DNA of 64,000 nt from contig NC_092672.1 in assembly GCF_964355755.1 (NCBI RefSeq), positions 37,330,437 to 37,394,436 on the forward strand, in the 5' to 3' direction. A program made the position numbers and the translations under genes. This document shows positions 27,396 through 63,579 of this stretch, in pieces. The notes beneath the pieces are model-generated. The model did not search any database and had not been told where the DNA came from. It was given only the letters and a program-made list of their open reading frames with translations. Each line of letters opens with the position of its first letter. The stretch's first letter is position 1. The stretch comes from Antedon mediterranea. Taxonomy: Eukaryota; Animalia; Echinodermata.

Positions 27396-30300
27396 TTACC
27401 AATGTGCTTCCAGACGTGTTGCTACCTTCTCTATAAACGATATATGACTGGCATACAGGGAAAGGTCAGAGCCTATATCCGTCCAATGAACGTCGGCTGC
27501 ATCATCGCCGGCATGCAACGTAAACTTTCCTACACTCTTTCCTGTGTCATCGTGGAAGTTGACAGCGACGGTTTCCATCCATGCATTGTCTGTATTCCGT
27601 GGGTCATCCACATAGCCTCTATAGACCTGAAATAATTGAGATGTATTGTATTAAATGCAATAAATATTGTGTAAAGCTCTGTCTACACTATCAAACTTTA
27701 TGTGATAACAAAAATATAATGTGTCCATATATAGACATGATGATGTCATATCACTACCATATTTGAGAATAATACTACCATATTTGGCCATGTCACATTT
27801 TTTTGTCAAACTAGTTTGATTGTGTAGACAGAGCTTCAACCTCACACCACCATTTAAGTATATTCAATGCCAATCGCATATAGTTGCAGCCATTAACCGT
27901 TAATTTTTCTATTTAAATACTTTAATATGTACCTCAATTCCATGGCGAAATAATTTGGCAACTTCTTTTTCCAAGGCCTTCTTCTCTTTTCCTGTGGCTT
28001 CTAAGGAATTCATTGCTTCTTCTCCAAATTCTCTTTTTAACGTTGCTGATACCGTGTCGCCAGCATCTACCATTCCCTGTCATTGGGTAATAATAACCAT
28101 TTATTAACCAACATATGCAGAGAAAAATTAAGGAGACACAACCGTATCTCTGACATACTTTTTTAAATACCTTCAAACATACTGTACTGTACAGAGAGCT
28201 ATTTAAAACATCTCTGGTATCAACAACAAAGGCACATGCCACGCATATATGTATATAACATCTCTGGCATCAACAACAAAGGCACATGCCACGCATATAT
28301 GTATATAACATCTCTGGCATCAACAACAAAGGCACATGCCACGCATATATGTATATCACATCTCTGGTATCAACAACAAAGGCACATGCCACGCATATAT
28401 GTATATAACATCTCTGGAATCAACAACAAAGGCACATGCCACGCATATATGTATATAACATCTCTGGCATCAACAACAAAGGCACATGCCACGCATATAT
28501 GTATATAACATCTCTGGCATCAACAACAAAGGCACATGCCACGCATATATGTATATAACATCTCTGGTATCAACAACAAAGGCACATGCCACGCATATAT
28601 GTATATAACATCTCTGGCATCAACAACAAAGGCACATGCCACGCATATATGTATATAACATCTCTGGCATCAACAACAAAGGCACATGCCACGCATATAT
28701 GTATATAACATCTCTGGTATCAACAACAAAGGCACATGCCACGCATACAAAGATCTACTCAGTAGTTAACAACAGAAATGATGGGCAATTATTACAAGAA
28801 TCTTTAAACAATGCACTGCAGTGGAGTAAAGAATGGATGTTGGCTTTTAATAAAAGCAAATGCATGGTGATGCACTTTGGGCATTCAAATGTTCATTTTA
28901 AATACCAAATAGATGAAGTTGAACTGGAAACAGTTGAGAAAATAAAGGACCTAGGAGTACTAATTACTAATGACTGTAAACCAAGCCAACACTGCGCCAA
29001 AGTATCTCAGCGGGCCATGAACTGTTTAAGAAGCATCAGAAGGACTTTCGTATATATGGATAAGGATTGTTTTAACGTCATCTACAAGCATTATGTACGC
29101 CCACATCTCGAATTTTGTGTTCAAGTATGGAATCCGTATCTTCAAAAGGACATAAATGTAATTGAAAGAGTACAACGTCGTGCGACTAAATTAGTTCCAT
29201 GTATCCGTTCATATTCATATGAAGATCGTTTAAAGTTTCTTGGCCTAACAACCTTGTATGACAGAAGAATTCGAGGTGACCTGATTGAAGCATATAAAAT
29301 TGTTAAAGGTTTCGAGGGTGTAGCCAAGGATGACTTTTTCCAAATGAGAAGTAACATTAGCAGAATTACTCGAGGGCATCACCTGAGATTTTTCAAGCCT
29401 ACTTTCCATAAAGGATTGAACTGTAGAAGACATACCTTCTCGCAACGAGTAATAAACCATTGGAACAGTTTACCAGCCGACGTTGTCAATTCTGAGACCG
29501 CTAATATCTTCAAGAATCGCATCGACACAATGTAGTTGATATGGGGTTTAAAAAGGCACATCGCCTAAACTTTCCCATTATAACTAAACTAAACTAACTA
29601 AACTATATATGTATATAACATCTCTGGTATCAACAACAAAGGCACATGCCACGCATATATGTATATAACATCTCTGGCATCAACAACAAAGGCACATGCC
29701 ACGCATATATGTATATAACATCTCTGATATCAACAACAAAGGCACATGCCACGCATATATGTATATAACATCTCTGGTATCAACAACAAAGGCACATGCC
29801 ACGCATATATGTATATAACATCTCTGATATCAACAACAAAGGCACATGCCACGCATATATGTATATAACATCTCTGGTATCAACAACAAAGGCACATGCC
29901 ACGCATATATGTATATAACATCTCTGGTATCAACAACAAAGGCACATGCCACACATATATGTATATCACATCTCTGGCATCAACAACAAAGGCACATGCC
30001 ACACATATATGTATGTAACATCTCTGGCATCAACAACAAAGGCACATGCCACGCATATATATATCTAGAAGAGCATTTGATTTTTGGACGTATTGGTACA
30101 AATACTCACCCCTGGTATAGCCCATAGGTGTATAGCCCATAGGTATTTAGCCCATGGTATTTTTGGACGTATTGGTACAAATACTCACCCCTGGTATAGC
30201 CCATAGGCCGGAATCCTTACGCTTTATTGCTACAAACTGTAAAATGTTTTTACCATCAGAATGTTTTACTTTATCTGAATTGGTACTTCGTTTCCACCTG

Positions 30301-33300: not shown

Positions 33301-36300
33301 ATTTAAAATTTTAAACGCGCGTGCGCGCGTAACTTTTTGTAAAACATGCCATTTTTAATCCACAGAAACTTTGCCCTTGATATGACTTAAAAGTTCACTA
33401 AGTGTCATTACAAAATGACTTTTAGTTTTTAGTCTATGTTAAATACGCGAAATTCATTAAATCGCGCGTAACTTACGCTGCGCGACTCTAAATTAAAAAA
33501 ACGAAACGTCCTGCACTTCTACAGATAGAGGTCAATCTTCTGACAAAGTTATACGATGTAATGTTGATAAGAATTTGAGATACACGTGACACAAAATTCT
33601 GGGAAAGAAAGAAGAATAAGATAGAAAAAAAAAAAAAAAAAGATCCTGACAATAACAAGAGGTTATCCGCCAAGTGCGGATAACCAATAATTCTTTACTT
33701 TCTATTCTAAGTTAAAACAATATCAAATTAGCTAAAATGGCCCATAGACTAGCACCATAATATGTTCTATAAATTGATTTAAAAATATATAAATTTATAA
33801 AACACCTTAACAAAAATGAAATTAAAAATTCTAATGTGCTTTCATCAAATACTGTTCCACTAAAAGTGAAGATCCCAAATAAAGATTATTATTTTATAAA
33901 CTTGACTAAATAAAGTTTATCACCAAATAATCTATTCTTAGAAGTCTGTTAAGCACACACTATGAAAACGCCCACAATGTTTTCCAACTGTGGTCACTTT
34001 CACAAGCTCACCTAATTTAATGACAACTGTTGATTGAGATATCTCTTAATATTAAACCAGGAGATATCAGTCATAGATTCCCAGAATTTATCTAACATTA
34101 AACTTTATCCTGGATTTGAATTTGAGAAGGATTTTAACATCCTTTTTATTACCCAACATATAAGCAGGGAGTTGTTATTAGATGGAGTAACAACAAATTT
34201 ATCAACTGATCTACAGCCAATAAGCGACGAGCGGTATACAGGAACCTCAAAGGATTATGCAGTCAACTGGCACTAATTTCCTGCCTTTTGTTTGGAGTCT
34301 ACTTTGCCGACGATGCCAGGCCCTCTATCGCCGGGATTCGTCCATTTTGAGTAAAGACTTCCGATGCATTCCTGACAAACAAACATTGTAGGCATGCGCA
34401 GATGATTCCTTCTTCGTCTATAGCGAGCTATATATCCAATACCAAATTGGCGAGTAAATCATGTTTTACTTTAAATTAAATGTATACGCTCTTCCACAAG
34501 GTAAATTGTTAGTTATACATACAGACTATATTAAAACAATGATTTTGAACACGTAGGGCATTTCTTTGAATTCTTTCCTATTGTCGTTTTGTGGTAATTT
34601 ACAGCTTTTTATATGTTTAACAAACGTACATAATCAATTGCGTCTGCATCATGCTAGACTACAACTTCCGGTAGTGACGTAATCAGCATATTTTTGGTAA
34701 TAAAACTTTTTCACTAAGCTAGGGAATCTTCTGATATCAATATTCATTAGACCGTACTTTAGTTAGCCAATCAAAATAAACGTATAAACAATTTTGCGGC
34801 GATGTTGTTGAAGTAAAATATACTGTGTTTTACAATAACCAATTTGGTTAGAGTAAAACACAATGATAAAGAATAGGAAACATTTAATAATATGATAAAT
34901 GTCATTACATAGCAATTTATCACTGTGTTTTACTATAACCAATTTGGTTAGAGTAAAACACAATGATATAGAATAGGCAACATTTAATAATATGATAAAT
35001 GACATTTACATAGCAATTTAGCACTGTGTTTTACTATAAACAATTTGGTTAAAGTAAAGCAGAATGATAAAGAATAGGAATTCAATAATATGATATATGA
35101 CATTTACATAGCAATTTAGCACTGTGTTTTACTATAACCAATTTGGTTAGAGTAAAACACAATGATAAAGAATAGGAAACATTTAATAATATGATATATG
35201 ACATTCACATAGCAATTTAGCACTGTGTTTTACTATAACCAATTTGGTTAGAGTAAAACACAATGATATAGAATAGGAAACATTTAATAATTTGATAAAT
35301 GACATTTACATAGCAATTTAGCACTGTGTTTTACTATAACCAATTTGGTTAAAGTAAAACACAATGATAAAGAATAGGAAACACTTAATAATATGATAAA
35401 TGACATTTACATAGCAATTTAGCACTGTGTTTTACTATAACCAATTTGGTTAAAGTAAAGCAGAATGATAAAGAATAGGAATTTAATAATATGATATATG
35501 ACATTTACATAGCAATTTAGCACTGTGTTTTACTATAACCAATTTGGTTAGAGTAAAACACAATGATAAAGAATAGGAAATATTTAATAATAATGATTAT
35601 TTACATAGCAATTTAGCACTGTGTTTTACTATAACCAATTTGGTTATAGTAAAACACAATGATATAGAATAGGAAACATTTAATAATATGATAAATGACA
35701 TTTACATAGCAATTTATCACTGTGTTTTACTATAACCAATTTGGTTAGAGTAAAACACAATGATAAAGAATAGGCAACATTTAATAATATGATAAATGAC
35801 ATTTACATAGCAATTTAGCACTGTGTTTTACTATAAACAATTTGGTTAAAGTAAAGCAGAATGATAAAGAATAGGAATTTAATAATATGATATATGACAT
35901 TTACATAGCAATTTAGCACTGTGTTTTACTATAACCAATTTGGTTAGAGTAAAACACAATGATAAAGAATAGGAAACATTTAATAATATGATATATGACA
36001 TTCACATAGCAATTTAGCACTGTGTTTTACTATAACCAATTTGGTTAGAGTAAAACACAATGATATAGAATAGGAAACATTTAATAATTTGATAAATGAC
36101 ATTTACATAGCAATTTAGCACTGTGTTTTACTATAACCAATTTGGTTAAAGTAAAACACAATGATAAAGAATAGGAAACACTTAATAATATGATAAATGA
36201 CATTTACATAGCAATTTAGCACTGTGTTTTACTATAACCAATTTGGTTAAAGTAAAGCAGAATGATAAAGAATAGGAATTTAATAATATGATATATGACA

Positions 36301-39300
36301 TTTACATAGCAATTTAGCACTGTGTTTTACTATAACCAATTTGGTTAGAGTAAAACACAATGATAAAGAATAGGAAATATTTAATAATAATGATTATTTA
36401 CATAGCAATTTAGCACTGTGTTTTACTATAACCAATTTGGTTATAGTAAAACACAATGATATAGAATAGGAAACATTTAATAATATGATAAATGACATTT
36501 ACATAGCAATTTATCACTGTGTTTTACTATAACCAATTTGGTTAGAGTAAAACACAATGATAAAGAATAGGAAACATTTAATAATAATGATTATTTACAT
36601 AGCAATTTAGCACTGTGTTTTACTATAACCAATTTGGTTATAGTAAAACACAATGATAAAGAATAGGAAACATTTAATGATATGATATATGACATTCACA
36701 TAGCAATTTAGCACTGTGTTTTACTATAACCAATTTGGTTAGATTAAAACACAATGATATAGAATAGGAAACATTTAATAATTTGATAAATGACATTTAC
36801 ATAGCAATTTAGCACTGTGTTTTACTATAACCAATTTGGTTAAAGTAAAAAACAATGATAAAGAATAGGAAACACTTAATAATATGATAAATGACATTTA
36901 CATAGCAATTTAGCACTGTGTTTTACTATAACCAATTTGGTTAAAGTAAAGCAGAATGATAAAGAATAGGAATTTAATAATATGATATATGACATTTACA
37001 TAGCAATTTAGCACTGTGTTTTACTATAACCAATTTGGTTAGAGTAAAACACAATGATAAAGAATAGGAAATATTTAATAATAATGATTATTTACATAGC
37101 AATTTAGCACTGTGTTTTACTATAACCCATTTGGTTATAGTAAAACACAATGATATAGAATAGGAAACATTTAATAATATGATAAATGACATTTACATAT
37201 CAATTTATCACTGTGTTTTACTATAACCAATTTGGTTATGGTAAAGCACAATGATATAGAATAGGAAACATTTAATAATATGATAAATGTCATTACATAG
37301 CAATTTAGCACTGTGTTTTACTATAACCAATTTGGTTAGAGTAAAACACAATGACAAAGAATAGGAAACATTTAATAATAATGATTGTTTACATAGCTAG
37401 CAATTTAGCACAATGTTTTACTATAACCAATTTGGTTATGGTAAAGCACAATGATATAGAATAGGAAACATTTAATAATATGATAAATGTCATTACATAG
37501 AAATTTAGCACTGTGTTTTACTATAACCAATTTGGTTAGAGTAAAACACAATGATAAAGAATAGGAAACATTTAATAACATGATAAATGACATTCACATA
37601 GAAATTTAGCACTGTGTTTTACTATAACCAATTTGATTAGAGTAAAGCACAATGATAAAGAATATGAAACATTTAATAATATGATAAATGACATTTACAT
37701 AGTAATTTATCACTGTGTTTTACTATAACCAATTTGGTTAGAGTAAAACATTTTAACTATGATAAATGATATTTAGCACTGTGCTGGATACAGTAAAACA
37801 CAAATTAAGAATAGGAAACATATAATAATATGATACATTTACATACAAATTTAGTATTGTGTTTTACTATAGCCAATTTGGTTACAGTAAAACACAATGA
37901 TAATGAAACATTTATTATATGATATTATTTACATACCAAAATATTATATTAAACATATCTTATTATCTAAACGTTATGAAAAGAATAGGATACATATAAT
38001 GTAATAATATAATAAATACAAGTTACATAGTTTATCATCTTGTTTTACAGTAAAAGCAATTTGGTAACACAGTTAAACACAGTGGTAAAGAATAGATACT
38101 GTTTTAGGTTATATAACCCTAACCCTAGTTTGAAGCGACATAATAAATTCATCGCGAAAAAGTACGTATCGTATTCAGAAACTTTTGAAATTTGTTAGAT
38201 ATGTTTAATAGGTTCTTACGTCTATAAAACAAACAAAAAATATAAATTTCACAAAAAATTCGTGATTTTAATAATTTGCATTTCTAAAAATGTACACTTA
38301 TGAAATACTATACATTTTCCAACACATTTTTACTTCATTGATGATTCCCAGAAATCAAAATAAAACAAATTATGATATTTCTTTTACATTATAGATGTAA
38401 GAACCTATATTGAACATGTACCAAATTTCAAACGTTTTTTAAGACGATACGTATTTTTATCGATGAATTAAGTATGTGATCGCTTCAAACTAGGGTTAGG
38501 GTTAAATAACCTAACAGTTCATTCTTTAACACTGTGTTTAACTTTTAACCAAATTGGTTTTAGTACAACACAATGATAAACTATGTACATTTTATTTTTC
38601 ATATTACATTATAGGATACATATAATGTAATAATAATAAATACAAGTTACATAGTTTATCATCTTGTTTTACAGAACCAATTTGGTTACACAGTTAAACA
38701 CAATGATAAAGAATAGACACTGTTTTAGGTTATATAACTCTAACCCTAGTATAGTTTGAAGCGATCACATACTTAATTCATCGCGAAAAAATACGTATTC
38801 AAATTTGGTAAATATGTTCAATAGGTTCTTACGTCTATAAAACAAACAAAAAATCAAAGTTTCAAGACAAATTCGTGATTTTAATAATTTGCATTTCTAA
38901 ACATTTACACTTATGAAAGACAATACATTTCCAACACATTTTTACTTCATTGATGATTCTCAGAAATCAAAATAAAACTATTAGGATATTTCTTTTGCAT
39001 TATAGATGTAAGAACCTATATTGAACATATCTACCAAATATCAAACGTTTTTCAAGACGATACGTATTTTTAGCGATGAATATTAAATATGTGATCGCTT
39101 CAAACTAGGGTTAGGGTTAAATAAACTAAAACAGTTCTATTCTTTATCACTCACTGTGTTTAACTTTTAACCAAAATGGTTATAGTAAAACACAATGATA
39201 AACTTATATGTCAATTTTATTTTTCATAACATAAAATGTTTGATATTCTTTATAATATTTAATATTATATTTTAGGCCTACTATTAATGACGTATAAATG

Positions 39301-42300
39301 CACACTACATCTGAAATAACTTTCTACTTCATTGGCGATTTTTACCAAAAAAAAGAACTAATTTTGTTATGTATATAGAGCAACCTATTATAACATGTCT
39401 TGTATGATTTTTATCTCGTTTCAATGACATTTTATACTACAATTCAAATGAAAAAGCATCACAAAAAAATACGTCTGGTATTCAAAAAGTTTCTAAACTC
39501 GGTACACAGAAAAAAGGAAATGTTGAAAATGTATGGTCTTTCATAAGTGTGAATTTTTTGAAATGCAAATAATGGAAATCATCGATTTGTCTTGAAATTT
39601 ATAATTTGTTTTGTCTTATTGAACATATCTATACAAAATGTCGAACGTTTCTGAATACGATACGTTTTTTATCTCGATGAATTTATAATGTCGCTTCAAA
39701 CTAGAGGGTAGGGTAGTAACCTAACAAGTATCTATTCTTTATCACTATGTTTAACTGTGTAACCATATTGGTTCTAATAAAAAACAATGATAAACTATGT
39801 AAATTGTATGTTTCATATATTACATTTTTGCCAAAAAAAATTATTGGGAATGTTAAATTTCTTTTTCATGACATATATCTACAAATTTCAGAAGCTTTTG
39901 AGTACGAGTATTTTACGCGATGTTTTTTTATCCTCATTTTAATATTTTGGTAATGTAATTCACATAAAGTTTTGTATCCAAAAATTGTTTATTCTTGGGT
40001 AGAAATGAGGAAATAAATAGTATTCCTGTATAATATAATAATCAATAATAAAGTATAAAAAAAGTGTTGTGTAAACGAACGTTTTTTACGCTTCGAATTT
40101 TCTGTTACATTATGTTTGAATTGAAGCTACAGATATTGAATCATGGACCTATAAATTAGTAATTTATAGGTCCATGATTGAACATATCGTCACTCACCAC
40201 ACATTTTTTGTTTTGTATTTTGAAAGTATTTATTCTAAAGAACAATTGATGCAAACATCAACTGCGTAACTTATTTCATTAATTAATTATATTAATTATA
40301 ATTTGGCGATTATTCGTCACACGAAGAGTCGAATATCGATTCGTCTCGTCATGGGCCGGAAGAAAACGTGCATTGCGCACACTGTTTACGCGCCTCAACA
40401 ATAAACGGCGAATATGCGATTCGTCACTTATGGAACGCCGTTTTACACAAGTTTTTGGCGATGATAAAAATTGCGTCGATGATGAAATTGCGTCGATGAA
40501 AATTGCATCGACGCAATGTAGATTGCGTCGATGCAATGTAGATTGCGTCGACGCAATTTACATTGCGTCGATGAAAATTGCATCGATTAAAATTGCGTCG
40601 ATGAAAATTGCGTCGATGAAAACTGCATCGATGAAAATTGCGTCGATGAAAACTGCATCGATGAAAATTGATGTGATGAATTTAATTGATTATGAAAATT
40701 CCAAATGGTTTTAATTCAATCAATGATGAAATGACTACTAGTAAAGTAAATGATGATGTTAATAATGATGTTAATAATGTTATTATGTTGCTAAAAATTG
40801 ACGGTTTCTGAATATTTTGATATGATAAACATGTTTACCGCTTGCGCTAGCGCGCGTTATAGACAAGCGCACAGTGATCGCGCACTAAAACAAGGTTGAA
40901 ATATATGCACTGATTAACATTTTAGTGATTTATTGTCAACACATTTTAGCAATGGATCCATTATTGTCCTTTCGGACACATTATATCTTCTAGCTAATTG
41001 CTTCCGTTAATCCACCAGTTCAGTACATAAAATCCAGAGGTCCAGCATCCATGACATCATATTCAAATCATACCGGCAGGGAGATCGCAATTTTCATCGA
41101 TGAAAACTGCATCGATGAAAATTATTTTTTTTTTCATCGATGCAGTTTTCATCGATGCAGTTTTCATCGACGCAATTTTCATCGACGCAATTTTCATCAC
41201 ATTAACGCAATTTTCATTACATCGACGCAATTTCATCGACGCAATGTTCATCACATCATTATATCAATACTATATTCATCGACGCAATTTTCATCACATC
41301 GACGCAATTTTCATTGCATCATCGACGCGATTTTATCATCGCCTAAACTGGCATTCCACACTAATTGCGTGTGATCTGATTGGTGTATTATAAATAAATT
41401 CATCGCGATGAATTTTTCAGTAGATGTAATGAGACAGTTCAGTAGATGTAATGACAGTTAATTTAATTGTTCTGCTCTTTTTGTACAAATCTATACTACT
41501 TTATATTATGGATTTTGTAGTACTGTTAAAATTATTAAATCTCTGGAAGTGTGTTTTACGAGTATGTCCGCAAATTTATGCGTTTACGGTTTTAAAATGT
41601 GAGTTTTAAATAGCGAACATGATCTTGTTGGTGCACTACGCACGCAGTATTCCAAAATGTCTTACTAATTGGGAGAAAATCATATTGTATCATATCATAT
41701 TATATCCATTCTTTAAATTCATATTCTTTATCCAAAACTAAATTGGTATAGTAAAACACAGTGCTAGCAATTTATCATATTATTAAATGTTTCATATTCT
41801 TTATCATTGTGTTTTACTCTAATCAAATTGGTATAGTAAAACACAGTGCTAAATTGCTATGTGAATGTCATTTATCATATTTTTAAATGTTTCCTATTCT
41901 TTATCATTGTGCTTTACCATAACCAAATTGGTTATAGTAAAACACAGTGCTAAATTGCTATGTAAATGTTATATATCATATTATTAAATTCCTATTCTTT
42001 ATCATTGTGTTTTACTCTAACCAAATTGGTTATAGTAAAACACAGTGATAAATTGCTATGTAAATGTAATTTATCATATTATTAAATGTTTCCTATTCTT
42101 TATCATTGTGTTTTACTCTAACCAAATTGGTTATAGTAAAACACAGTGATAAATTGCTATGTAACTGTAATTTATCATGTTATTAAATGTTTCCTATTCT
42201 TTATCGTTGAGTTTTACTCTAATCAAATTGGTTATAGTAAAACACAGTGCTAAATTGCTATGTAAATGTTATATATCATATTATTAAATGTTTCCTATTC

Positions 42301-45300
42301 TTTATCATTGTGTTTTACTCTAATCTGATTTGTTATAGTAAAACACAGTGCTAAATTGCTATGTGAATGTCATTTATCATGTTATTAAATGTTTCCTATT
42401 CTTTATCATTGTGCTTTACTCTAACCAAATTGGTTATAGTAAAACACAGTGCTAAATTGCTATGTAAATGTCATTTATCATGTTATTAAATGTTTCTTAT
42501 TCTTTATCATTGTGTTTTACTCTAACCAAATTGGTTAGAGTAAAACACAGTGATAAATTGCTATGTAAATGTAATTTATCATATTATTAAATGTTTCCTA
42601 TTCTTTATCATTGTGTTTTACTCTAACCAAATTGGTTATAGTAAAACACAGTGATAAATTGCTATGTAAATGTAATTTATCATGTTATTAAATGTTTCCT
42701 ATTCTTTATCGTTGTGTTTTACTCTAATCAAATTGGTTATAGTAAAACACAGTGCTAAATTGCTATGTAAATGTTATATATCATATTATTAAATGTTTCC
42801 TATTCTTTATCATTGTGTTTTACTCTAATCTGATTGGTTATAGTAAAACACAGTGCTAAATTGCTATGTGAATGTCATTTATCATGTTATTAAATGTTTC
42901 CTATTCTTTATCATTGTGCTTTACTCTAACCAAATTGGTTATAGTAAAACACAGTGCTAAATTGCTAAATGTCATTTATCATGTTATTAAATGTTTCTTA
43001 TTCTTTATCATTGTGTTTTACTCTAACCAAATTGGTTATAGTAAAACACAGTGCTAAAAATTGCTATGTAAATGTAATTTATCATATTATTAAATGTTTC
43101 CTATTCTTTATCATTGTGTTTTACTCTAACCAAATTGGTTATAATTTATTTAATTTCATTTCAAAAGACATTTACCTAAATTGCTATTTAAATGTCATTT
43201 ATCAAATTATTAAATGTTTCCTATTATTTATCTGGTTATATAGTAAAACACTGTGCTAAATTGCTATTGTATTAAGGACGAGTTCCGAGAAGATGTATTC
43301 AAAGCTACAACCAATCAGAACAGTGTTAATCAATATAGTCCATGGCTACAGCCAATCAGAAACGTCCAAATCGCAATAACCCCTAGGCTAATAGAAATTA
43401 TTGGTCCGAGTAGCCTTTTCAACCAGACGTTGCGAGGTTTAAAAAGTAAAACATGATTTACTCGCCAGTTTGGTATAGTTTATATACCTGCTATAGCTTT
43501 ACAATTTGTTTACGTCATTAGAGAATTCTGCAATATATATTTTACAAAAAACCGCTTTAAATTCCAACCTTTCGTTAAAAAGTTACGATAATTCAAAGTG
43601 TACGTTCATCTGTTTGTTTGTAGACCTTCTTTCGTGATTTTCAGAGACTTTTGGTAAGTTTTAAAGTTAATATTTGATATTTTCCGCACGTTTCTCCATT
43701 TTAACACCAGCGCTAATATTTAAAAGAGTATGTCTTCTATCATTCTCTTGATATCTTATTTTCTTACAGTTTCTTACATAATCGTAATTTTGGTTAAAAT
43801 ACAACATGTTTTTATAGGTGTGGGCATGTTGTCAGTAGTGATAAACGCCAGCGTGTAATCTGGGTAATTAACACCCTCCGATCGTATGTTTGTTGGCGGC
43901 TGGAATCGCCGATTCTGGTGATGCAATAGGTACACCACCAGGGCCTAGGCCTAGCCAGGGAGATGGTCTAATAACAAATCCCTGGCCTAGCCCTCTCCCA
44001 TAAATAGGCCTAGGCCCCTGCACGTATGCTAGGCGGGGAATTACCTATACAACTAAGCATAGCCTATAGAATAGGCCTATATAATTATAGGATGTCCACT
44101 ATAAATAATATTTAATATTAATACAACTCTATGACTATGTATGAATGTACTGACTGTAATTTATTTTGTTGTCTTCTTGTTATTCATTATAGGAATTTGT
44201 ACTGTAATAATGGAAATACAGGCTATTTGTCATTTATGTGGGCGAGAGACTGCTGCATCTGACTCAAGACGTCTAATTTTGAAATCTGATTATTCAGATT
44301 TAATCCAGCGTGCACTACAAGTAGATGTGAACACGGATATTCTCCCACCATACAGTTGTAACAACTGTAGAGTAAAACTTGACACATGGAAGAAGAATAT
44401 GCGCTCTAAAAAGAAGGATGTAAAAATTGGAATAAACCTTGCTGATTTTGATTCCAGTGAAAAACAGACAGAAGAATCTTTTTTCTGTGAGGCAGCAGTA
44501 GTTGCATTGCATCTCAAATGGGATACATTCTTTGGAAAGAAGGAGAAGACAAACACATGTTTACAAACATTGTTATTTGTACATGTATTTATTTTTAAAT
44601 ATGTATTTAATACAAAGAATTAAAAAATGACTCAGTATATCGATTATTTTTATTTACAGTATATCATTCATTAAAAGCCTTGGTTACATTTAGATATAAA
44701 GTACTGTACAGTACTTGATTTTTTCTTCTGCACTGTAGCCCCTTTCTTCTTTGTCTGTGCAGGGAGTTCCCTGGTCTGTGCAGGAACATCTTTGTCTAGA
44801 ATTGAAAAAAAAAAACAATTAACATAACTCCCTGGTCATACATTTAATCAGGCGTTGTCAATTTAACTCCCGGCATTTGTTAACAAATGAAAAATACATA
44901 AATCTTCCCAATTGTCAGTAGTGACAACCCAGGTCATAATTAATAAATGGAAATAATACTGCATCATCAGAAAGTTGTTTTTATTGGGGTAGGCCTAGCC
45001 CCTAGTTGACCGTCCCTCCCTTCCTTCCTGATGAAATATTAAAGTTCAATGAATAAATACCTGTAAAAAAAGGCAACGTAAAAAAGGCCTCCTTTCTTTC
45101 CTAGAGATTCTAGCTAGGAACGGTAGGCTGCAGTAGTATCAAATATTGAATAGGCTACACCAGTTACTAACCTGTTTCTTGAGTAGTAGTACTACTACTA
45201 GGCCTAGGTCGCTTAACACTAGGCCTACTTGAGCCAGGCCAATGCCCAATATTATTAACGTCGTGTTGTTGACAGCATTGCTCACAAACCCATTTGCCAG

Positions 45301-47991
45301 CTGGAACTTCAGAAGATGTGAGCTTCACACATTCAAAATGGAACCATTCATTAGGACATGCTTTTCCTTCACAAGCGATCATTTGATCGTCAGAACTTTC
45401 CCCACATGGGCAATACATTGGCACATTTTCATTTAGATCAACATCTTCTAAATCGCTATCATCTAAATCGGAAAAGTCTACGTACGTACATCGGTATAGA
45501 AGTCGTCAGTTGTCATTGTGTGTCGCGATTGTATCATCTGGCTTTCTGAAACACCATGACGATGTGTGACGTAGGCCAGAGTTATTCAAGCGGCGAAGAG
45601 CGAAGCAACTTTGACTTTTCTGCGCATGCGCGTGTCATTGATTACGTCAGGGAAAATTGTTTATTTGATGAGGAACTGTTTATCGGGGATTAAGTCTTAT
45701 CTATTTTACTTCCTGTCGGAAAAGTAGACTGATCAAAAGAACATACTATGATGTTACTCCATCTAATAACAACTCCCTGATATAAGGAAGTCAATGGCAT
45801 GATCGAATGTACTTCCTTTAGTACAATCAGGAGGGAAGAGAGAGGAATTCCCATCAGAGGTAATTTTTTTCATCATATGTTTTTAATCTAAAAAAGGAAG
45901 TGTATGCTGTAAATGTTTATTCAATAATTAAACTTATAAACTTATTTAATTTATTCTTAGAAAGAAATTCTAAACCACCCTGTAATTATTTTTATTGAAC
46001 ATACTCTTTAAAATAAATATATATTTAAATGGCTAGAGCAAGGCAATCTACTGTATCAACAGGATGCTCAGGGCCGGAGATCAAAGGGTTTATCTGTGGC
46101 TGCAACATGATCAGTTCCACACCCCTTAAGAGATCAAAGGGTTTATCTGTGGCTGCAACATGATCAGTTTCACACCCCTTAAGAGATCAAAGGGTTTATC
46201 TGTGGCTGTGACAGGATGCTGAGCTCCAGAGATCAAAGGGTTCATCTGTGGCTGTGACAGGATGCTGAGCTCCAGAGATCAAAGGGTTCATCTGTGGCTA
46301 CAACAAGTCAGTTCCACCTGCGCGCCTCAGAGAATTATGTACAGTACCGGACAGAATTATTGCAGATTTTTGCAGTTTCACGCCCCTTCAAGAGATCAAA
46401 GGGTTTATCTGTGGCTGTGACAGGATGCTGAGCTCCAGAGATCAAAGGGTTCATCTGTGGCTACAACAAGTCAGTTCCACCTGCGCGCCTCAGAGAATTA
46501 TGTACAGTACCGGACAGAATTATTGCAGATTTTTGCAGTTTCACGCCCCTTAAGAGATCAAAGGGTTTATCTGTGGCTGTGACAGGATGCTGAGCTCCAG
46601 AGATCAAAGGGTTCATCTGTGGCTACAACAAGTCAGTTCCACCTGCGCGCCTCAGAGAATTATGTACAGTACCGGACAGAATTATTGCAGATTTTTGCAG
46701 TTTCACGCCCCTTAAGAGATCAAAGGGTTTATCTGTGGCTGCAACATGATCAGTTTCACGCCCCTTAACCAAGGAGTTTTGAACTGCACAGCGGAGAATA
46801 TGTAAATAGTAAGCCTACCATACTGTGTTGGTATTTGTCGCAGCCAGACATAAGATCAAAGGACTGTTATGAGTTCCTAGGCGAGCTCAGTGTCCTCTTG
46901 TTGGACTGGTTAAAAACACTATTACCACGAAAATAAATGTTCTGCTTGATATATACAGACATCAATAATTTGACCACTGTAGGTTCAATGCGAGTTCATG
47001 ACAGATTTTTTTCACCAATACAGTAGCTAAGTATGATTTAAAATTATATTTCTATATAAAAAATACAGTACTGTTGTTCAACGAGAAAGCTTATTGACTG
47101 AATTGAAATTTTAGATGACAAAAATATATTTCTATACAGATCAATGACCTTTATTTCACAGTTTTATAATGCAGGGTGTGATTCTGTATAAAAAGAACAA
47201 ACCATACTTGTAATACAAATAATAGCATATTCAGTCTATAGACTAAATGTGTGACAATAGCCTTTGTTAGATGCATTGTGTTAAAACCAATCAATATTTA
47301 ATAATATATTAAGTATGAAAAACCAAGAATAATTAAATATTGTGATTGGAAATTTTAAAAACCGATTATGTGTTAATACCGTACCTACCACCTGCGATTA
47401 AATAAAAAAAATGTAATCATGCAATACAAATTGAATACTGTTGATAAGAAGTTAGGGCCCTCTCATACTGGGTGGGCCAGACAGAGCATATTATTTAATT
47501 AAATTTAAAATGTTCATATTTCAAAATGCGAAATCCAAAAATGCCTACAATACAACCATACCATCATGATGATATTGATGGGTGTATTCTGATGATCCTT
47601 TATTAGTTAGTCTTCTGACACAGTGAGTATTATTATGCCTAGGCCTAGTAGGCCTACTAGGCCCTAGTTTAGTTAAGGCATAATAAGCTGATGTTAAAAC
47701 TCATATTTCACCATTGTCATTGACATTACACGTCACCTAACAACATACTGAATTCTGTAGTCTGTCGCGGCGGTGGTTCGGCGATCAAGCCCTTGGGGCC
47801 GGGCCTTGTCTTGTTGTTGGCAGGTGGTGGTGGGTTGGTACTTATAATAATACTCTCCATCGATTCCCAGCCCAGCCTACACACAAAACGGGATACAAAC
47901 GCCTATCAAAAATTGCAAAACGATTTCGTAAATTTAAAAACAATTGGCATATTTACCTCTTAGTAGACAGGTGAACAACTCCGCACACCAT
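27396..47991 (-). CDS. NUDT9: ADP-ribose pyrophosphatase, mitochondrial (exons 47991-47957 [putative], 32384-32133, 30848-30750, 30573-30487, 30297-30189, 28076-27933, 27626-27396; ~318 aa)
   Basis: [60 protein letters not shown] (NUDT9 Nudix box), [21 protein letters not shown]. Exon 1 is inferred from phase match and a transit-peptide-like sequence. Confidence 0.93.
28209..30063. repeat. 50-bp minisatellite in a NUDT9 intron, split by a CR1 insertion
   Basis: Unit CATCTCTGGCATCAACAACAAAGGCACATGCCACGCATATATGTATATAA on both sides of the LINE. Confidence 0.95.
28747..29603 (+). mobile_element. 5'-truncated CR1-type LINE (RT C-terminal part, 3' UTR, (AACTA)n tail)
   Basis: [82 protein letters not shown] open to 29535. 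Confidence 0.92.
32479..33690 (-). mobile_element. Non-autonomous Helentron/DINE-1-like (HINE) element
   Basis: Minus strand begins TTATTGGTTATCCGC-ACTTG-GCGGATAACC (subTIR plus inverted copy). It ends GCGGATAACC, hairpin ACTCGTC/GACGAGT, CTAGTT. Confidence 0.75.
34820..37910. repeat. ~101-bp palindromic satellite, left arm (~30 copies)
   Basis: Unit contains CACTGTGTTTTACTATAACCAA-T-TTGGTTAGAGTAAAACACAATG. A ~796-bp higher-order repeat is visible. Confidence 0.95.
40142..40176. repeat. 35-bp perfect palindrome with near-TSD
   Basis: CATGGACCTATAAATTA-G-TAATTTATAGGTCCATG flanked by ATTGAAT/ATTGAAC. Confidence 0.8.
40455..41345. repeat. Inverted pair of 15-bp tandem arrays (GTCGATGAAAATTGC)n
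   Basis: Array at 40455-40680 and its reverse complement at 41085-41345. Confidence 0.85.
41735..43265. repeat. ~101-bp palindromic satellite, right arm in inverted orientation (~15 copies)
   Basis: Reverse complement of the 34820-37910 monomer. Confidence 0.95.
44210..44623 (+). CDS. Truncated transposon protein with RAG1-N-terminal/Chapaev-like C2C2 zinc finger
   Basis: [11 protein letters not shown]...[32 protein letters not shown]. Acceptor at 44192, upstream donor at ~43634. The C-terminal end runs into AT-rich sequence, consistent with a deletion junction. Confidence 0.6.
   Translation: MEIQAICHLCGRETAASDSRRLILKSDYSDLIQRALQVDVNTDILPPYSCNNCRVKLDTWKKNMRSKKKDVKIGINLADFDSSEKQTEESFFCEAAVVALHLKWDTFFGKKEKTNTCLQTLLFVHVFIFKYVFNTKN
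44670..45516 (-). pseudogene. Acidic tract plus ING-type PHD-finger gene (exons ~45516-45172 and ~44796-44670), frameshifted near its start
   Basis: [53 protein letters not shown] is a C4HC3 finger. The upstream ATG is out of frame across a GTAC repeat at ~45478-45488. Confidence 0.7.
46060..46770. repeat. Composite tandem repeat built on AGAGATCAAAGGGTTTATCTGTGGCT
   Basis: Short ~47-54-bp units combine into a ~162-bp higher-order unit repeated three times. Confidence 0.9.
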
Positions 47992-49513: not shown

Positions 49514-52500
49514 ATGGCTCCCAAGAAGAAGAAAAAGTCTGGAAAAGGCAAATTAGCAAAGATGACGGAAGAAGAGAGAATTATTTACCTGGAACAAAAG
49601 GCATTGCAAGAAGAAGAGATGAAGAAGAAAAAAGAGGACATGCTCAATCAATTTCTTAAGGTTATCTAATTTGAATAAAGATTGTGAAAACAAGATTATA
49701 CTGTACATCATTAATAAAATACCTGTATAACAACGTAATATTATTTTTACAATACAAAACAAGACTTAAAAAATATGTTGTTTTTCTTCTTTTAGGATAA
49801 ACTTGTGAAGGAAGAGCGAAGTGCACATTTTAATCTTTTCAAATTAAACCACCAATGGCGAACTATCATGAGAACAGCTAAATCAAAAGAACTAAAAAAA
49901 GATATTGAGATTCTTAGTCAGACATTTGAAAGAGTCGTGGACCGTAAAGACAGCGTAATCAAGTCGTTAGTTAAAGATCTTGGAGAGGCAGAAGAGCAAT
50001 ATTCCATGGCATTGAGAAGTCATTTACAAAATATGGATCATTTAATAGGTAAATATGTTATCAGAAATGGAGTAGTAGTCAGTATCCAGTATAAAGTGTG
50101 GCTTATCATACACTTCCATAATTTTATTTACTTTTTTTTAACTGTTTTATCATGTTTTAATGTAATATAAATGAGCACCTACTGTTTTATCATGTTTTAA
50201 TGTAATATAAATTAGCACCTACTGTTTTATTTTTTGTTTTATAGGCTGCCTCATACATTATTTAATATTATATACTTATAGAGAGAAATAAATGTTACTT
50301 TGATTGATTGATTGAAACACCAACTTTCAAAATTGAATAACTATATATATTAAACAATTGGTTAATGACAAATTTCAAAGTTACAACGTACTTTAATCCT
50401 CATACAGAATCCTTATGACCATGCTATAGTATAGTATTCATAGTGGTATATTTAATACTTAGCTGCATAAAACCACTCATTTTGAAGCCTGATGTAGATG
50501 TAAATCTATTTTTAGATCTTCAGCGATGTCGTCTTGAAGTGTTACTAAGTGAATACGAGGAAGAACTAAAAGTGCTCAAGAAAGAATTTGACACAGAACG
50601 ACAGATGATCGTAGAACAACATAAACAAGAGATGAATGACCTTCAAGATATTCTATTTGCTATGGAAGAGAATGCTAACGAACGAGAAGCAGAGGCTAGG
50701 CAAGACTTTCAGAGTCTGAGAGATGAGATCAAAAATAAGGTTAAGATTTCATGGCCTGTCACTTTAATTTTTAATTGCTCTTTTTACTTTATTTATTTAT
50801 TTCATAGATTACTTTTATTTTTATGTAAAGCGCATAGAAGTGTTATGCGTTATGCGCTTAAAACTCTAAATTTATTATATTTGGACTTGTTGGGTGTAAC
50901 AATAGTACATTGTCTAAACTCTATTCTAACCATACTTAATTACCCGAACATATATGACTAGATTCCTACATAATTTCCTATCTGCCATTGTGACAGCCAG
51001 TTCATCTCTCTGTTTACCAGTATCCATCTCCAGTACATCAGTATATGTGAGAGCTGGCCTTCATAGAGAAAAAAAAACAGAGCTTTTCCTTCACCAAACC
51101 CCACTTCATCTAATTACCAATACTTTTTCAAAATGTTGGTTCAGCTGTTGTTGCTCACTCTCTTATATTTTCATAGCTCTGTACATATTAGTGTAAATCA
51201 AAACAGCATGTTTCTTATTCCTATAGAACCTTGAGGAGAAGCATGCCCTGCGGATCCAACTGGAAAGCCAAGTGGAAGATTTATGGAAGCAATTTCAACA
51301 GGCTTTGAGGAATTACAACGAAACAACGGAAGAAAGAAAGGCAGCGTTTGAAAACCTTCGTGATAAAGATGAAAAAAGTGCAAAAGAGATTGAAATGCAG
51401 ATGAGGAAGTTACAAAGAATATCTGTAAGCCTGAGTTGTTGTGATTTGTAGATGCTCTTCTATTAGTGTGCTATGTACAGTTCCTAACACCAAGATCATT
51501 TTCATTGTATAGTATATTATTAAAATGAAATGAAAGGTTACTTACAGTATACCAGGATTACTGATCAAATAAATAATGTAATGTACATGTAATGTACAGT
51601 ATGGATAATGTACAGTATGGATAATGTACAGTATGGATAATGTACAGTATGGATAATGTACAGTATGGATAATGTACAGTATGGATAATGTACAGTATGG
51701 ATAATGTACAGTATGGATAATGTACAGTATGGATAATGTACAGTATGGATAATGTTTATCATTTATTAAGCTCTGTCTACATTATCCAACTAGGTGGTGA
51801 TATGCCCAAATATGGTAGTGATATGACATCATTATTTCCATATACATTTGTCTGGTGCAACTCTTATCCTTCCAGTATTAAAAAACTTCAAACTCTTCAA
51901 AAAAAGGCCATCAGGGTTATATCTGGCGCCCCACCCCTGTCTAATTCATCTCATCTTTTTTCAAAGCTTAATCTTCTCAAAGTCTCCGATATCAATCTAA
52001 CCCAACAAGGCTCGTTCATCTTTTCTTCTATTAATTCCAACCTTCCCAAACATCTCTGCTCCATGTTCACTCCAAATTCTTCAATTCATTATCATAATAC
52101 CCGTATTTGTTCAAAATTACATATTCCAACCCATAAAACCAACCACTTTCAACACAACATTAGGTATTCCGGACCCACTTTTTGGAACGATCTGCCACTC
52201 CCCATCTTAAACTCTGTTTCTAGTTAATCATTTTTATCTTAACTTAAAAGTCACCTTATTGCCAAATATTAACTTTTCCTCGGTCAGTTTTTTTATTTAT
52301 TTATTTTTTTATTTTTGTATTTTTTTTATTTTATAAATTTTTATTGTCTGTGTCTGTAATAGGTACGTCCTCCACAAGATGTGTTTTTCATCTTTCTGGG
52401 CGTGTACCTTCTTCTTTCGAATTTTGTTTACATATTTATTGATCACTGAAATCTATTTTGTATATGAAAGGAGAAAATAAATGTTGCTTTGAATTGAATT

Positions 52501-58475: not shown

Positions 58476-63579
<5,104 letters not shown>

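Follow-up and report, generated by a model that had tools for sequence, protein, structure and literature searches.

The window, by which we mean the whole 64,000-nucleotide stretch of DNA analysed here, contains at 34165–45779 a transposon-like element within AT-rich animal sequence (33.5% GC). The question raised by this locus is to which transposon superfamily the element belongs and how it is related to RAG, given that it carries a gene with a RAG1-like zinc finger (gene A) and a gene with an acidic stretch and a PHD finger (gene B). A sequence-only reading had noted that such ends and TSDs typify the P superfamily, had left the superfamily unproven, and had offered two options, a possible donor of RAG modules or a convergent chromatin-targeted transposon.

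Ends of the element and insertions within it

The window was compared with five sequencing runs (X1, X5, X6, X10 and X13). The features that define the element and the insertions in it are as follows.

34158–34164, left TSD ATATAAG, 7 bp, present as a single copy in the empty-site contig
34165–34192, forward strand, left TIR, 28 bp, beginning CAGGG; a contig of run X10 (organism C) also begins at 34165
34418–34424, left TSD of the foldback, CTATAGC, from contig comparison
34425–43490, nested non-coding foldback, specific to the window copy; foldback-free contigs in X5 and X10
43491–43497, right TSD of the foldback, CTATAGC, from contig comparison
43956–43984, 29-bp remnant built from the two TIR ends and flanked by a separate 7-bp duplication (GCCTAGC), from repeat comparison
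45752–45779, reverse strand, right TIR, 28 bp, a perfect match to the left TIR
45780–45786, right TSD ATATAAG, 7-bp duplication

The results confirmed the perfect pair of 28-bp TIRs (34165–34192 and 45752–45779) and the 7-bp TSD ATATAAG described earlier; the duplication is exactly 7 bp, since lengths of 6 and 8 bp fail, and an 8-bp TSD was rejected. The 18-nt TIR end occurs three times in the window, where 0.06 occurrences are expected, and 0 of 100 shuffles reached three. The related subterminal motifs that had been reported are present as a similarity between the two ends, and this similarity is weak and short. The search for an empty site was successful: a contig of run X1 (3,083 nt) matches 33721–34164 and 45780–46050 with a 7-letter overlap, and because it covers both flanks with a single ATATAAG, it represents the empty site. 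One contig of run X10 (organism C) also covers both flanks of the element. In run X1, contig depth was 156–186 on the element and 8.98 for the flank contig, which suggests that the element is multi-copy, with roughly 10–20 copies by depth, a measure that is not identical to copy number.

The consensus for the TIR ends of the P superfamily is CANRG. The window element has the CA..TG ends of this superfamily on its 28-bp, CAGGG-starting TIR, and its 7-bp TSD, supported by the empty site, lies within the superfamily's range of 7–8 bp. Similarly, Drosophila P transposase (6P5A/6PE2), Galileo, 1360 and THAP9 have CA..TG TIRs of ∼30 bp and internally deleted, non-autonomous copies, and the TSD length of the window element is that of Galileo and 1360, for which 7 bp is given as typical in the accessible part of PMC3698922.

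Most of the length of the element is a foldback. In run X5, one contig passes directly from 34424 to 43491, overlapping by 7 letters, and a contig of run X10 likewise joins 34424/34425 to 43491; because both bridge the site, the 9-kb foldback is a later insertion, and its removal leaves 2,542 bp, in agreement with the ∼2.5 kb estimated earlier. Its ends are imperfect (∼55 bp), and its contents include inverted 101-bp tandem arrays at 34822–37750 and 41769–43143, 613-bp repeats, and an inner hairpin of 15-bp repeats at 40453–41347. It is likely a Galileo-like, non-autonomous P-type element. The termini of the foldback are unequal (GAGC.. on the left, CAGG.. on the right), its contig depth in run X1 is ∼430, and the inner hairpin may be a further insertion.

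The 29-bp remnant consists of 18 bp from one TIR end and ∼11 bp from the other, inside its 7-bp duplication; in run X10, its right-hand 18 bp match the TIR end exactly. This single example is likely a P-type excision footprint, and it would fit repair after a P-type cut with a 17-nt stagger. A 17-nt stagger has been described for P-type end cleavage (PMC7776569). The remnant predates the spread of the family, because it is unchanged in run X1. Separately, copies of the element differ at 44576, 45317, 45460 and 45479 by local duplications of 4–10 letters that resemble insertion-excision footprints.

The zinc-finger gene and its relatives

As had been claimed, two tail-to-tail genes are present, with both ORFs converging. 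Their features are as follows.

43653–44192, forward strand, GT-AG intron of the gene A 5′ UTR, boundary ±1 base (joint 43652→44192 in run X5)
44210–44558, forward strand, gene A, the truncated 5′ end of a putative transposase gene (∼116 aa) with a RAG1-NZD/Chapa-like finger, ZFa half only
44558–44606, internal deletion junction, approximate (660 extra letters in X10; layout of L004)
44715–44795, reverse strand, gene B exon 2, a lysine-rich mini-exon with a D-K start and a candidate 3′ donor at 44715, placed from L004
44796–45171, reverse strand, gene B intron 1, phase 1, GT-AG (joint 44795→45172 in X5 and X6)
45172–45484, reverse strand, coding part of gene B exon 1: acidic tract, ING-type PHD (∼45275–45412) and Ser/Thr linker

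Gene A by itself gave little in direct searches: Pfam returned only a weak zf-AD match, word-based protein searches gave no relatives of longer or near length, no convincing match was obtained in the PDB, and no relatives were found in viral and prokaryotic sequence collections. Among its ESM Atlas neighbours, PF12560 (RAG1_imp_bd) occurred in 11–33% of the members. A full HMMER scan identified 11 relatives (E 4e-7 to 8e-4, 32–44% identity over ∼80 residues), and the closest of these are the N-termini of P-type transposases from echinoderms and a hemichordate; the named sources are Apostichopus, Anneissia and Patiria (echinoderms) and Saccoglossus (hemichordate). The P RNase H domain PF21787 was above the cut-off in 4 of the 11, the other seven being shorter proteins without a core, and no transposase family other than P was matched among them. 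Through a profile search, the set was extended by full-length sequences of Acanthaster, Patiria and Diadema, with PF21787 in 21 of the 23 matches, a count biased by the inclusion of the core in the profile. No THAP match was found in gene A or its relatives, which matched zf-AD or PF12560 instead. The closest relatives contain PF21787, PF21788 and PF21789 (RNase H D-D-E and GTP-binding insertion). In the window copy this catalytic core is deleted, consistent with its reported absence, and with the CTD exon, which is likewise missing, the loss amounts to ∼4 kb when compared with the L004 locus (described below).

When the gene A-family profile was compared with the PDB, the top two matches were Drosophila P transposase and the mouse RAG1 NZD; the match to the latter (21WB) had E 7.3e-4, and its alignment covers both fingers. 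Furthermore, a single protein, P0026, matches both 6P5A_A (Drosophila P transposase, E 3.9e-23) and 21WB (E 3.4e-5). Both CxxC pairs are conserved in window protein A and in all 27 N-terminal rows, four of which are near-copies of P0011. Window protein A has the four Cys and the D-x3-I-h-P-x2-C motif of ZFa; the His and His-Cys-Cys of ZFb are missing from it and from L004, which have the first finger only. Thus, of the RAG1-N-like finger reported earlier, the NZD/Chapa link is real, but of the eight zinc ligands of an NZD, gene A retains no more than four. All eight type I ligands are found in 7 of the 27 rows, four of these (L001, P0002, P0026 and P0028) on a P core; the pattern search had flagged eight rows, and P0020 was rejected as a loose match. 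In P0011, P0007, P0019, P0022 and P0024, a His and a Cys precede the first CxxC and the end has only a CxxC, so that these NZDs resemble the two-plus-two type II Chapa pattern.

Judging from these relatives, gene A is what remains of the 5′ part of a P-type transposase gene, with an NZD/Chapa finger where THAP would otherwise be. The simplest guess is that the NZD would take over the role of THAP in binding the element ends. The element might instead be a derivative of Chapaev or of a RAG-like (Transib) transposon with unusual ends, as the PF12560 hits among the Atlas neighbours and the convergent gene layout could indicate. Chapaev (CMC group) likewise has an N-terminal Chapa/NZD finger, and both the type I and the two-plus-two (type II-like) forms occur among the P relatives. 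However, Chapaev has another core and no second gene, and its ends are CAC..GTG with a TSD of 3–4 bp (accessible part of PMC4079192), RAGL/ProtoRAG has CAC ends and a 5-bp TSD (accessible part of PMC7204232), and the window element has CAG ends and a 7-bp TSD. In addition, wherever a core could be recognised among the relatives, it was of the P type. On the basis of the ends, the TSD length and these cores, membership in Chapaev or Transib was excluded, and we regard such a derivation as largely refuted and extremely unlikely.

The PHD gene and the C-terminal domain of the transposase

The PHD of gene B matched best, among PDB entries, ING1–5 and Yng (E 5e-16 to 1e-9; ING4, 4.8e-16), with which it shares a C4HC3 finger and the aligned Tyr, Met and Trp; no RAG2 PHD was among the best 60 of the 89 matches. 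Its Cys/His spacing, x1-x10-x4-x5-x2-x14-x2, is unlike the RAG2 and RAG2L patterns given in the accessible part of PMC7204232, and a RAG2-type PHD was ruled out by this spacing together with the ING-type sequence. The acidic tract comprises 20 residues, of which nine are D/E, and is poorly kept in L004 (two D/E in 14); the hinge of RAG2 is ∼60 residues long according to the accessible part of 10.1101/2023.08.20.553239. The three aligned residues Tyr, Met and Trp are, we assume, the positions of the H3K4me3 cage, and the PHD is predicted to bind H3K4me3.

Both genes had been read as apparently starting near the TIRs. For gene B of the window copy, four extra letters at 45479, absent from runs X1, X5 and X6, put the upstream ATG in a different frame from the acidic tract and PHD; these three runs have instead seven extra letters at 45317, which break the PHD. 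Run X5, whose status as RNA is a guess, skips two GT-AG introns, one per strand, and both genes are therefore likely transcribed and spliced. Because run X6, presumed to be DNA, also shows the gene B joint, an intronless DNA form may exist. In run X6, a single contig (44224–45521) links gene A with spliced gene B. In the deleted form, there may thus be overlap or read-through between the two transcripts, which could yield dsRNA or short repressor-like products.

A metagenome scan with four transposases as queries gave 31 related loci. Among them, L004 encodes a complete P transposase of the NZD type and has, in convergent orientation, a PHD gene whose layout is that of gene B in the window: a PHD exon, a phase-1 intron, and a K-rich mini-exon with a D-K start (84 nt, compared with 81 nt in the window). 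The finger spacing x4-x5-x2-x14-x2 is also common to the two. In L004, gene B continues in frame into a long helical exon and encodes in total 456 aa with a PHD, a K-rich stretch and a helical CTD; no kelch domain was found in it. The RAG2-like acidic hinge and PHD that had been proposed for gene B were thus not borne out: the PHD is of the ING type, kelch is absent, and the relatives continue into a P CTD.

These findings also bear on the possibility that gene B is mere cargo with no part in transposition, a fragment captured from an ING-like gene of the host. This explanation would fit the ING1–5/Yng matches, an ING4 alignment that reaches into the acidic stretch, the absence of CTD sequence from the window copy and the broken PHD of the majority copies. 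Against it, the exon layout, the intron phase, the D-K start and a finger loop longer by two residues are shared with gene B of L004, which runs in frame into the CTD, and we consider cargo very unlikely. Compared with ING1–5/Yng, gene B has no ING N-terminal domain and lies inside a transposon, and the PHD of its relatives is fused to a transposase domain. Probably, the PHD was taken from an ING-like source long ago, but it is fused to that domain.

The identity of the helical domain was examined across the related loci. Homologous convergent ORFs are present in five of them (L001, L009, L016, L018 and L021), and fragments of such ORFs in L029 and L031. Seven loci have a finished core followed by at least 950 bp past its stop, and in six of these a convergent CTD ORF was found; the exception is L025, with 981 bp. 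Intact cores of the relatives stop 66–88 aa after the third catalytic motif (QDPLE), compared with 262 aa in the canonical L023. Leave-one-out CTD profiles gave E values of 1.8e-10 to 4.5e-30 for the best ORF in the four groups with long ORFs. For the last exon of L004 gene B, the top PDB match of the trimmed profile was 6P5A_B (E 0.0013), with the YxAGY and GGL motifs aligned. In a comparison of the L004 CTD model with 48,161 chains, 6P5A_B ranked first with Z 10.5 (next, 7.5). The L018 CTD model (pLDDT 83.8) had 6P5A_B at Foldseek rank 1 (probability 1.00), and its comparison with that chain gave Z 10.5, rmsd 2.5 and 114 of 118 residues (next, 5.2); the two models come from members that are 20% identical. 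Both Z values lie in the range below ∼13 that can be generic for helical bundles. By profile and model comparison, the last exon of the convergent gene is the CTD of the P transposase.

Based on these results, we consider, with a probability of about 85%, that the window element is a non-autonomous, core-less deletion derivative of a two-gene P transposon whose transposase is split between the convergent genes. The following points weigh against this reading. The link of the window element to P comes from the relatives found in the HMMER scan, at the identities given above, together with the ends and the TSD, and no full-length member of its exact family was recovered; the TIR of the window is absent from the 31 related loci, around which no TIR-plus-TSD pair was found. 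The PHD occurs in 1 of these 31 loci, L009 and L018 having a C2H2 finger in its place, and L025 has no CTD ORF. Regarding the CTD, its profile against the in-chain CTD of L023 gave an hhalign probability of 2%, the untrimmed profile had no match in the PDB, all Foldseek E-values for the CTD models were > 0.001, a low-confidence L004 model had no Foldseek match, the ESM Atlas returned only generic helical matches under 0.9 for the L004 CTD region, and no Pfam family covers the CTD exon. The second genes of the THAP-type split elements (L009:3732–4886 and L018:2758–3984) have an acidic start as well as the C2H2 finger.

In the full form of such a split P transposon, as seen in L004 and presumed for the window family, gene A would comprise the NZD/Chapa finger, a linker, HTH, RNase H (D-D-E) and the GTP-binding core, and gene B an ING-type PHD, a lysine-rich stretch and the helical CTD, which in the Drosophila enzyme belongs to the same chain as the core. 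Protein B would supply the CTD in trans, both proteins would likely assemble into a P-type transpososome, and the PHD may anchor the reaction at active chromatin or set its timing there. The window copy has kept its two ends and the first part of each gene, whereas neither the core nor the CTD exon is left in it. It would then have been mobilised in trans, an empty site having been seen; the foldback was inserted later. Like P elements, the relatives have an HTH, an RNase H D-D-E domain, a GTP-binding domain and a CTD homolog. They differ from canonical P/THAP9 in having an NZD/Chapa finger and no N-terminal THAP, and in having the CTD not in the same chain but on a separate convergent gene, together with a finger of the PHD or C2H2 type. 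A further difference from P elements, in the window copy, is the lack of a core.

Origin of the finger and relation to RAG

RAGL/ProtoRAG and RAG1-RAG2 likewise have two convergent genes, an NZD-type finger heading the catalytic gene and a PHD on the partner. In contrast to them, the relatives of the window element have a P core and not a Transib core, the partner is a transposase CTD and not a kelch propeller, the PHD is N-terminal and of the ING type, and no RING was seen. The link to the RAG1 finger is real and the link to RAG2 is not. The option of a convergent chromatin-targeted transposon fits the data, and most likely the RAG-like two-gene geometry arose independently.

The alternative is that this lineage donated the RAG non-core modules: RAG1L/Chapaev would have received the NZD from an ancestor of the two-gene P elements, as might RAG2L the convergent PHD gene. 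The seven N-termini with all eight type I ligands, four of them on a P core, and the alignment to 21WB across both fingers would agree with a donor role, as would the named hosts, which are ambulacrarians, where RAGL-A also occurs (accessible part of 10.1101/2023.08.20.553239). The NZD was also not inherited from the RAG1/Transib ancestor, according to the accessible part of Hong et al. (10.64898/2026.01.24.700457). On the PHD side, the spacing and PDB results for gene B and the kelch-free L004 gene B argue against donation. In addition, in a quick core tree of 44 rows, none of them from RAG1L or Chapaev, with a midpoint root and SH-aLRT as the sole support measure, all 17 NZD rows, two of them labelled from partial sequence, fell within one 24-row clade (SH-aLRT 92) adjoining THAP-bearing split elements. 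We therefore consider this alternative unlikely, and a donor role possible for the NZD only.

The tree, from which L015, L026, L029, L030, near-copies of P0011 and proteins with too little core were left out, places the NZD clade beside THAP families with a second gene (L008/L009 and L010/L017/L018, L010 being THAP by Pfam). Because of this position, the split looks older than the NZD, and under the midpoint root the tree suggests that the NZD is a later gain within P. A more far-reaching reading, which we put forward tentatively and find rather doubtful, is that the lineage of the window element is the P-type source of the NZD of RAG1L, which is absent from Transib, and also a natural two-subunit, chromatin-guided P transposase.

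In previous studies, the Chapa domain was stated not to be encoded by other known transposable elements (Kapitonov and Koonin, 2015; PMC4411706, accessible part), and Chapaev was described as the only lineage consistently retaining the NZD (Hong et al., 2026; bioRxiv 10.64898/2026.01.24.700457, accessible part). The main text of the latter, as far as it is accessible, makes no mention of the P element or THAP, and its supplementary hit table may list such proteins as uncharacterised. In the literature searched, which stops short of Repbase, Dfam and most subscription journals, we found no description of NZD-bearing or split P transposases. Given a coherent clade of P transposases in which the two-zinc motif is complete, models of the origin of the NZD must include a third lineage, and phylogeny could be used to test in which direction the domain was transferred. 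The split P transposase, whose CTD subunit carries an exchangeable reader, either PHD or C2H2, offers a direct test of CTD function, and the PHD-bearing subunit a test of whether a transposon steers by histone marks, in parallel to RAG2.

Elsewhere in the window, exons of an NYD-SP28 (PF14772) sperm-tail gene, presumably CCDC65/DRC2, lie at 49796–50961, ∼4 kb from the element. ORFs at 28609–29535, 51721–52227 and 58575–59954 resemble fragments of LINE reverse transcriptases, and many tandem arrays are present.
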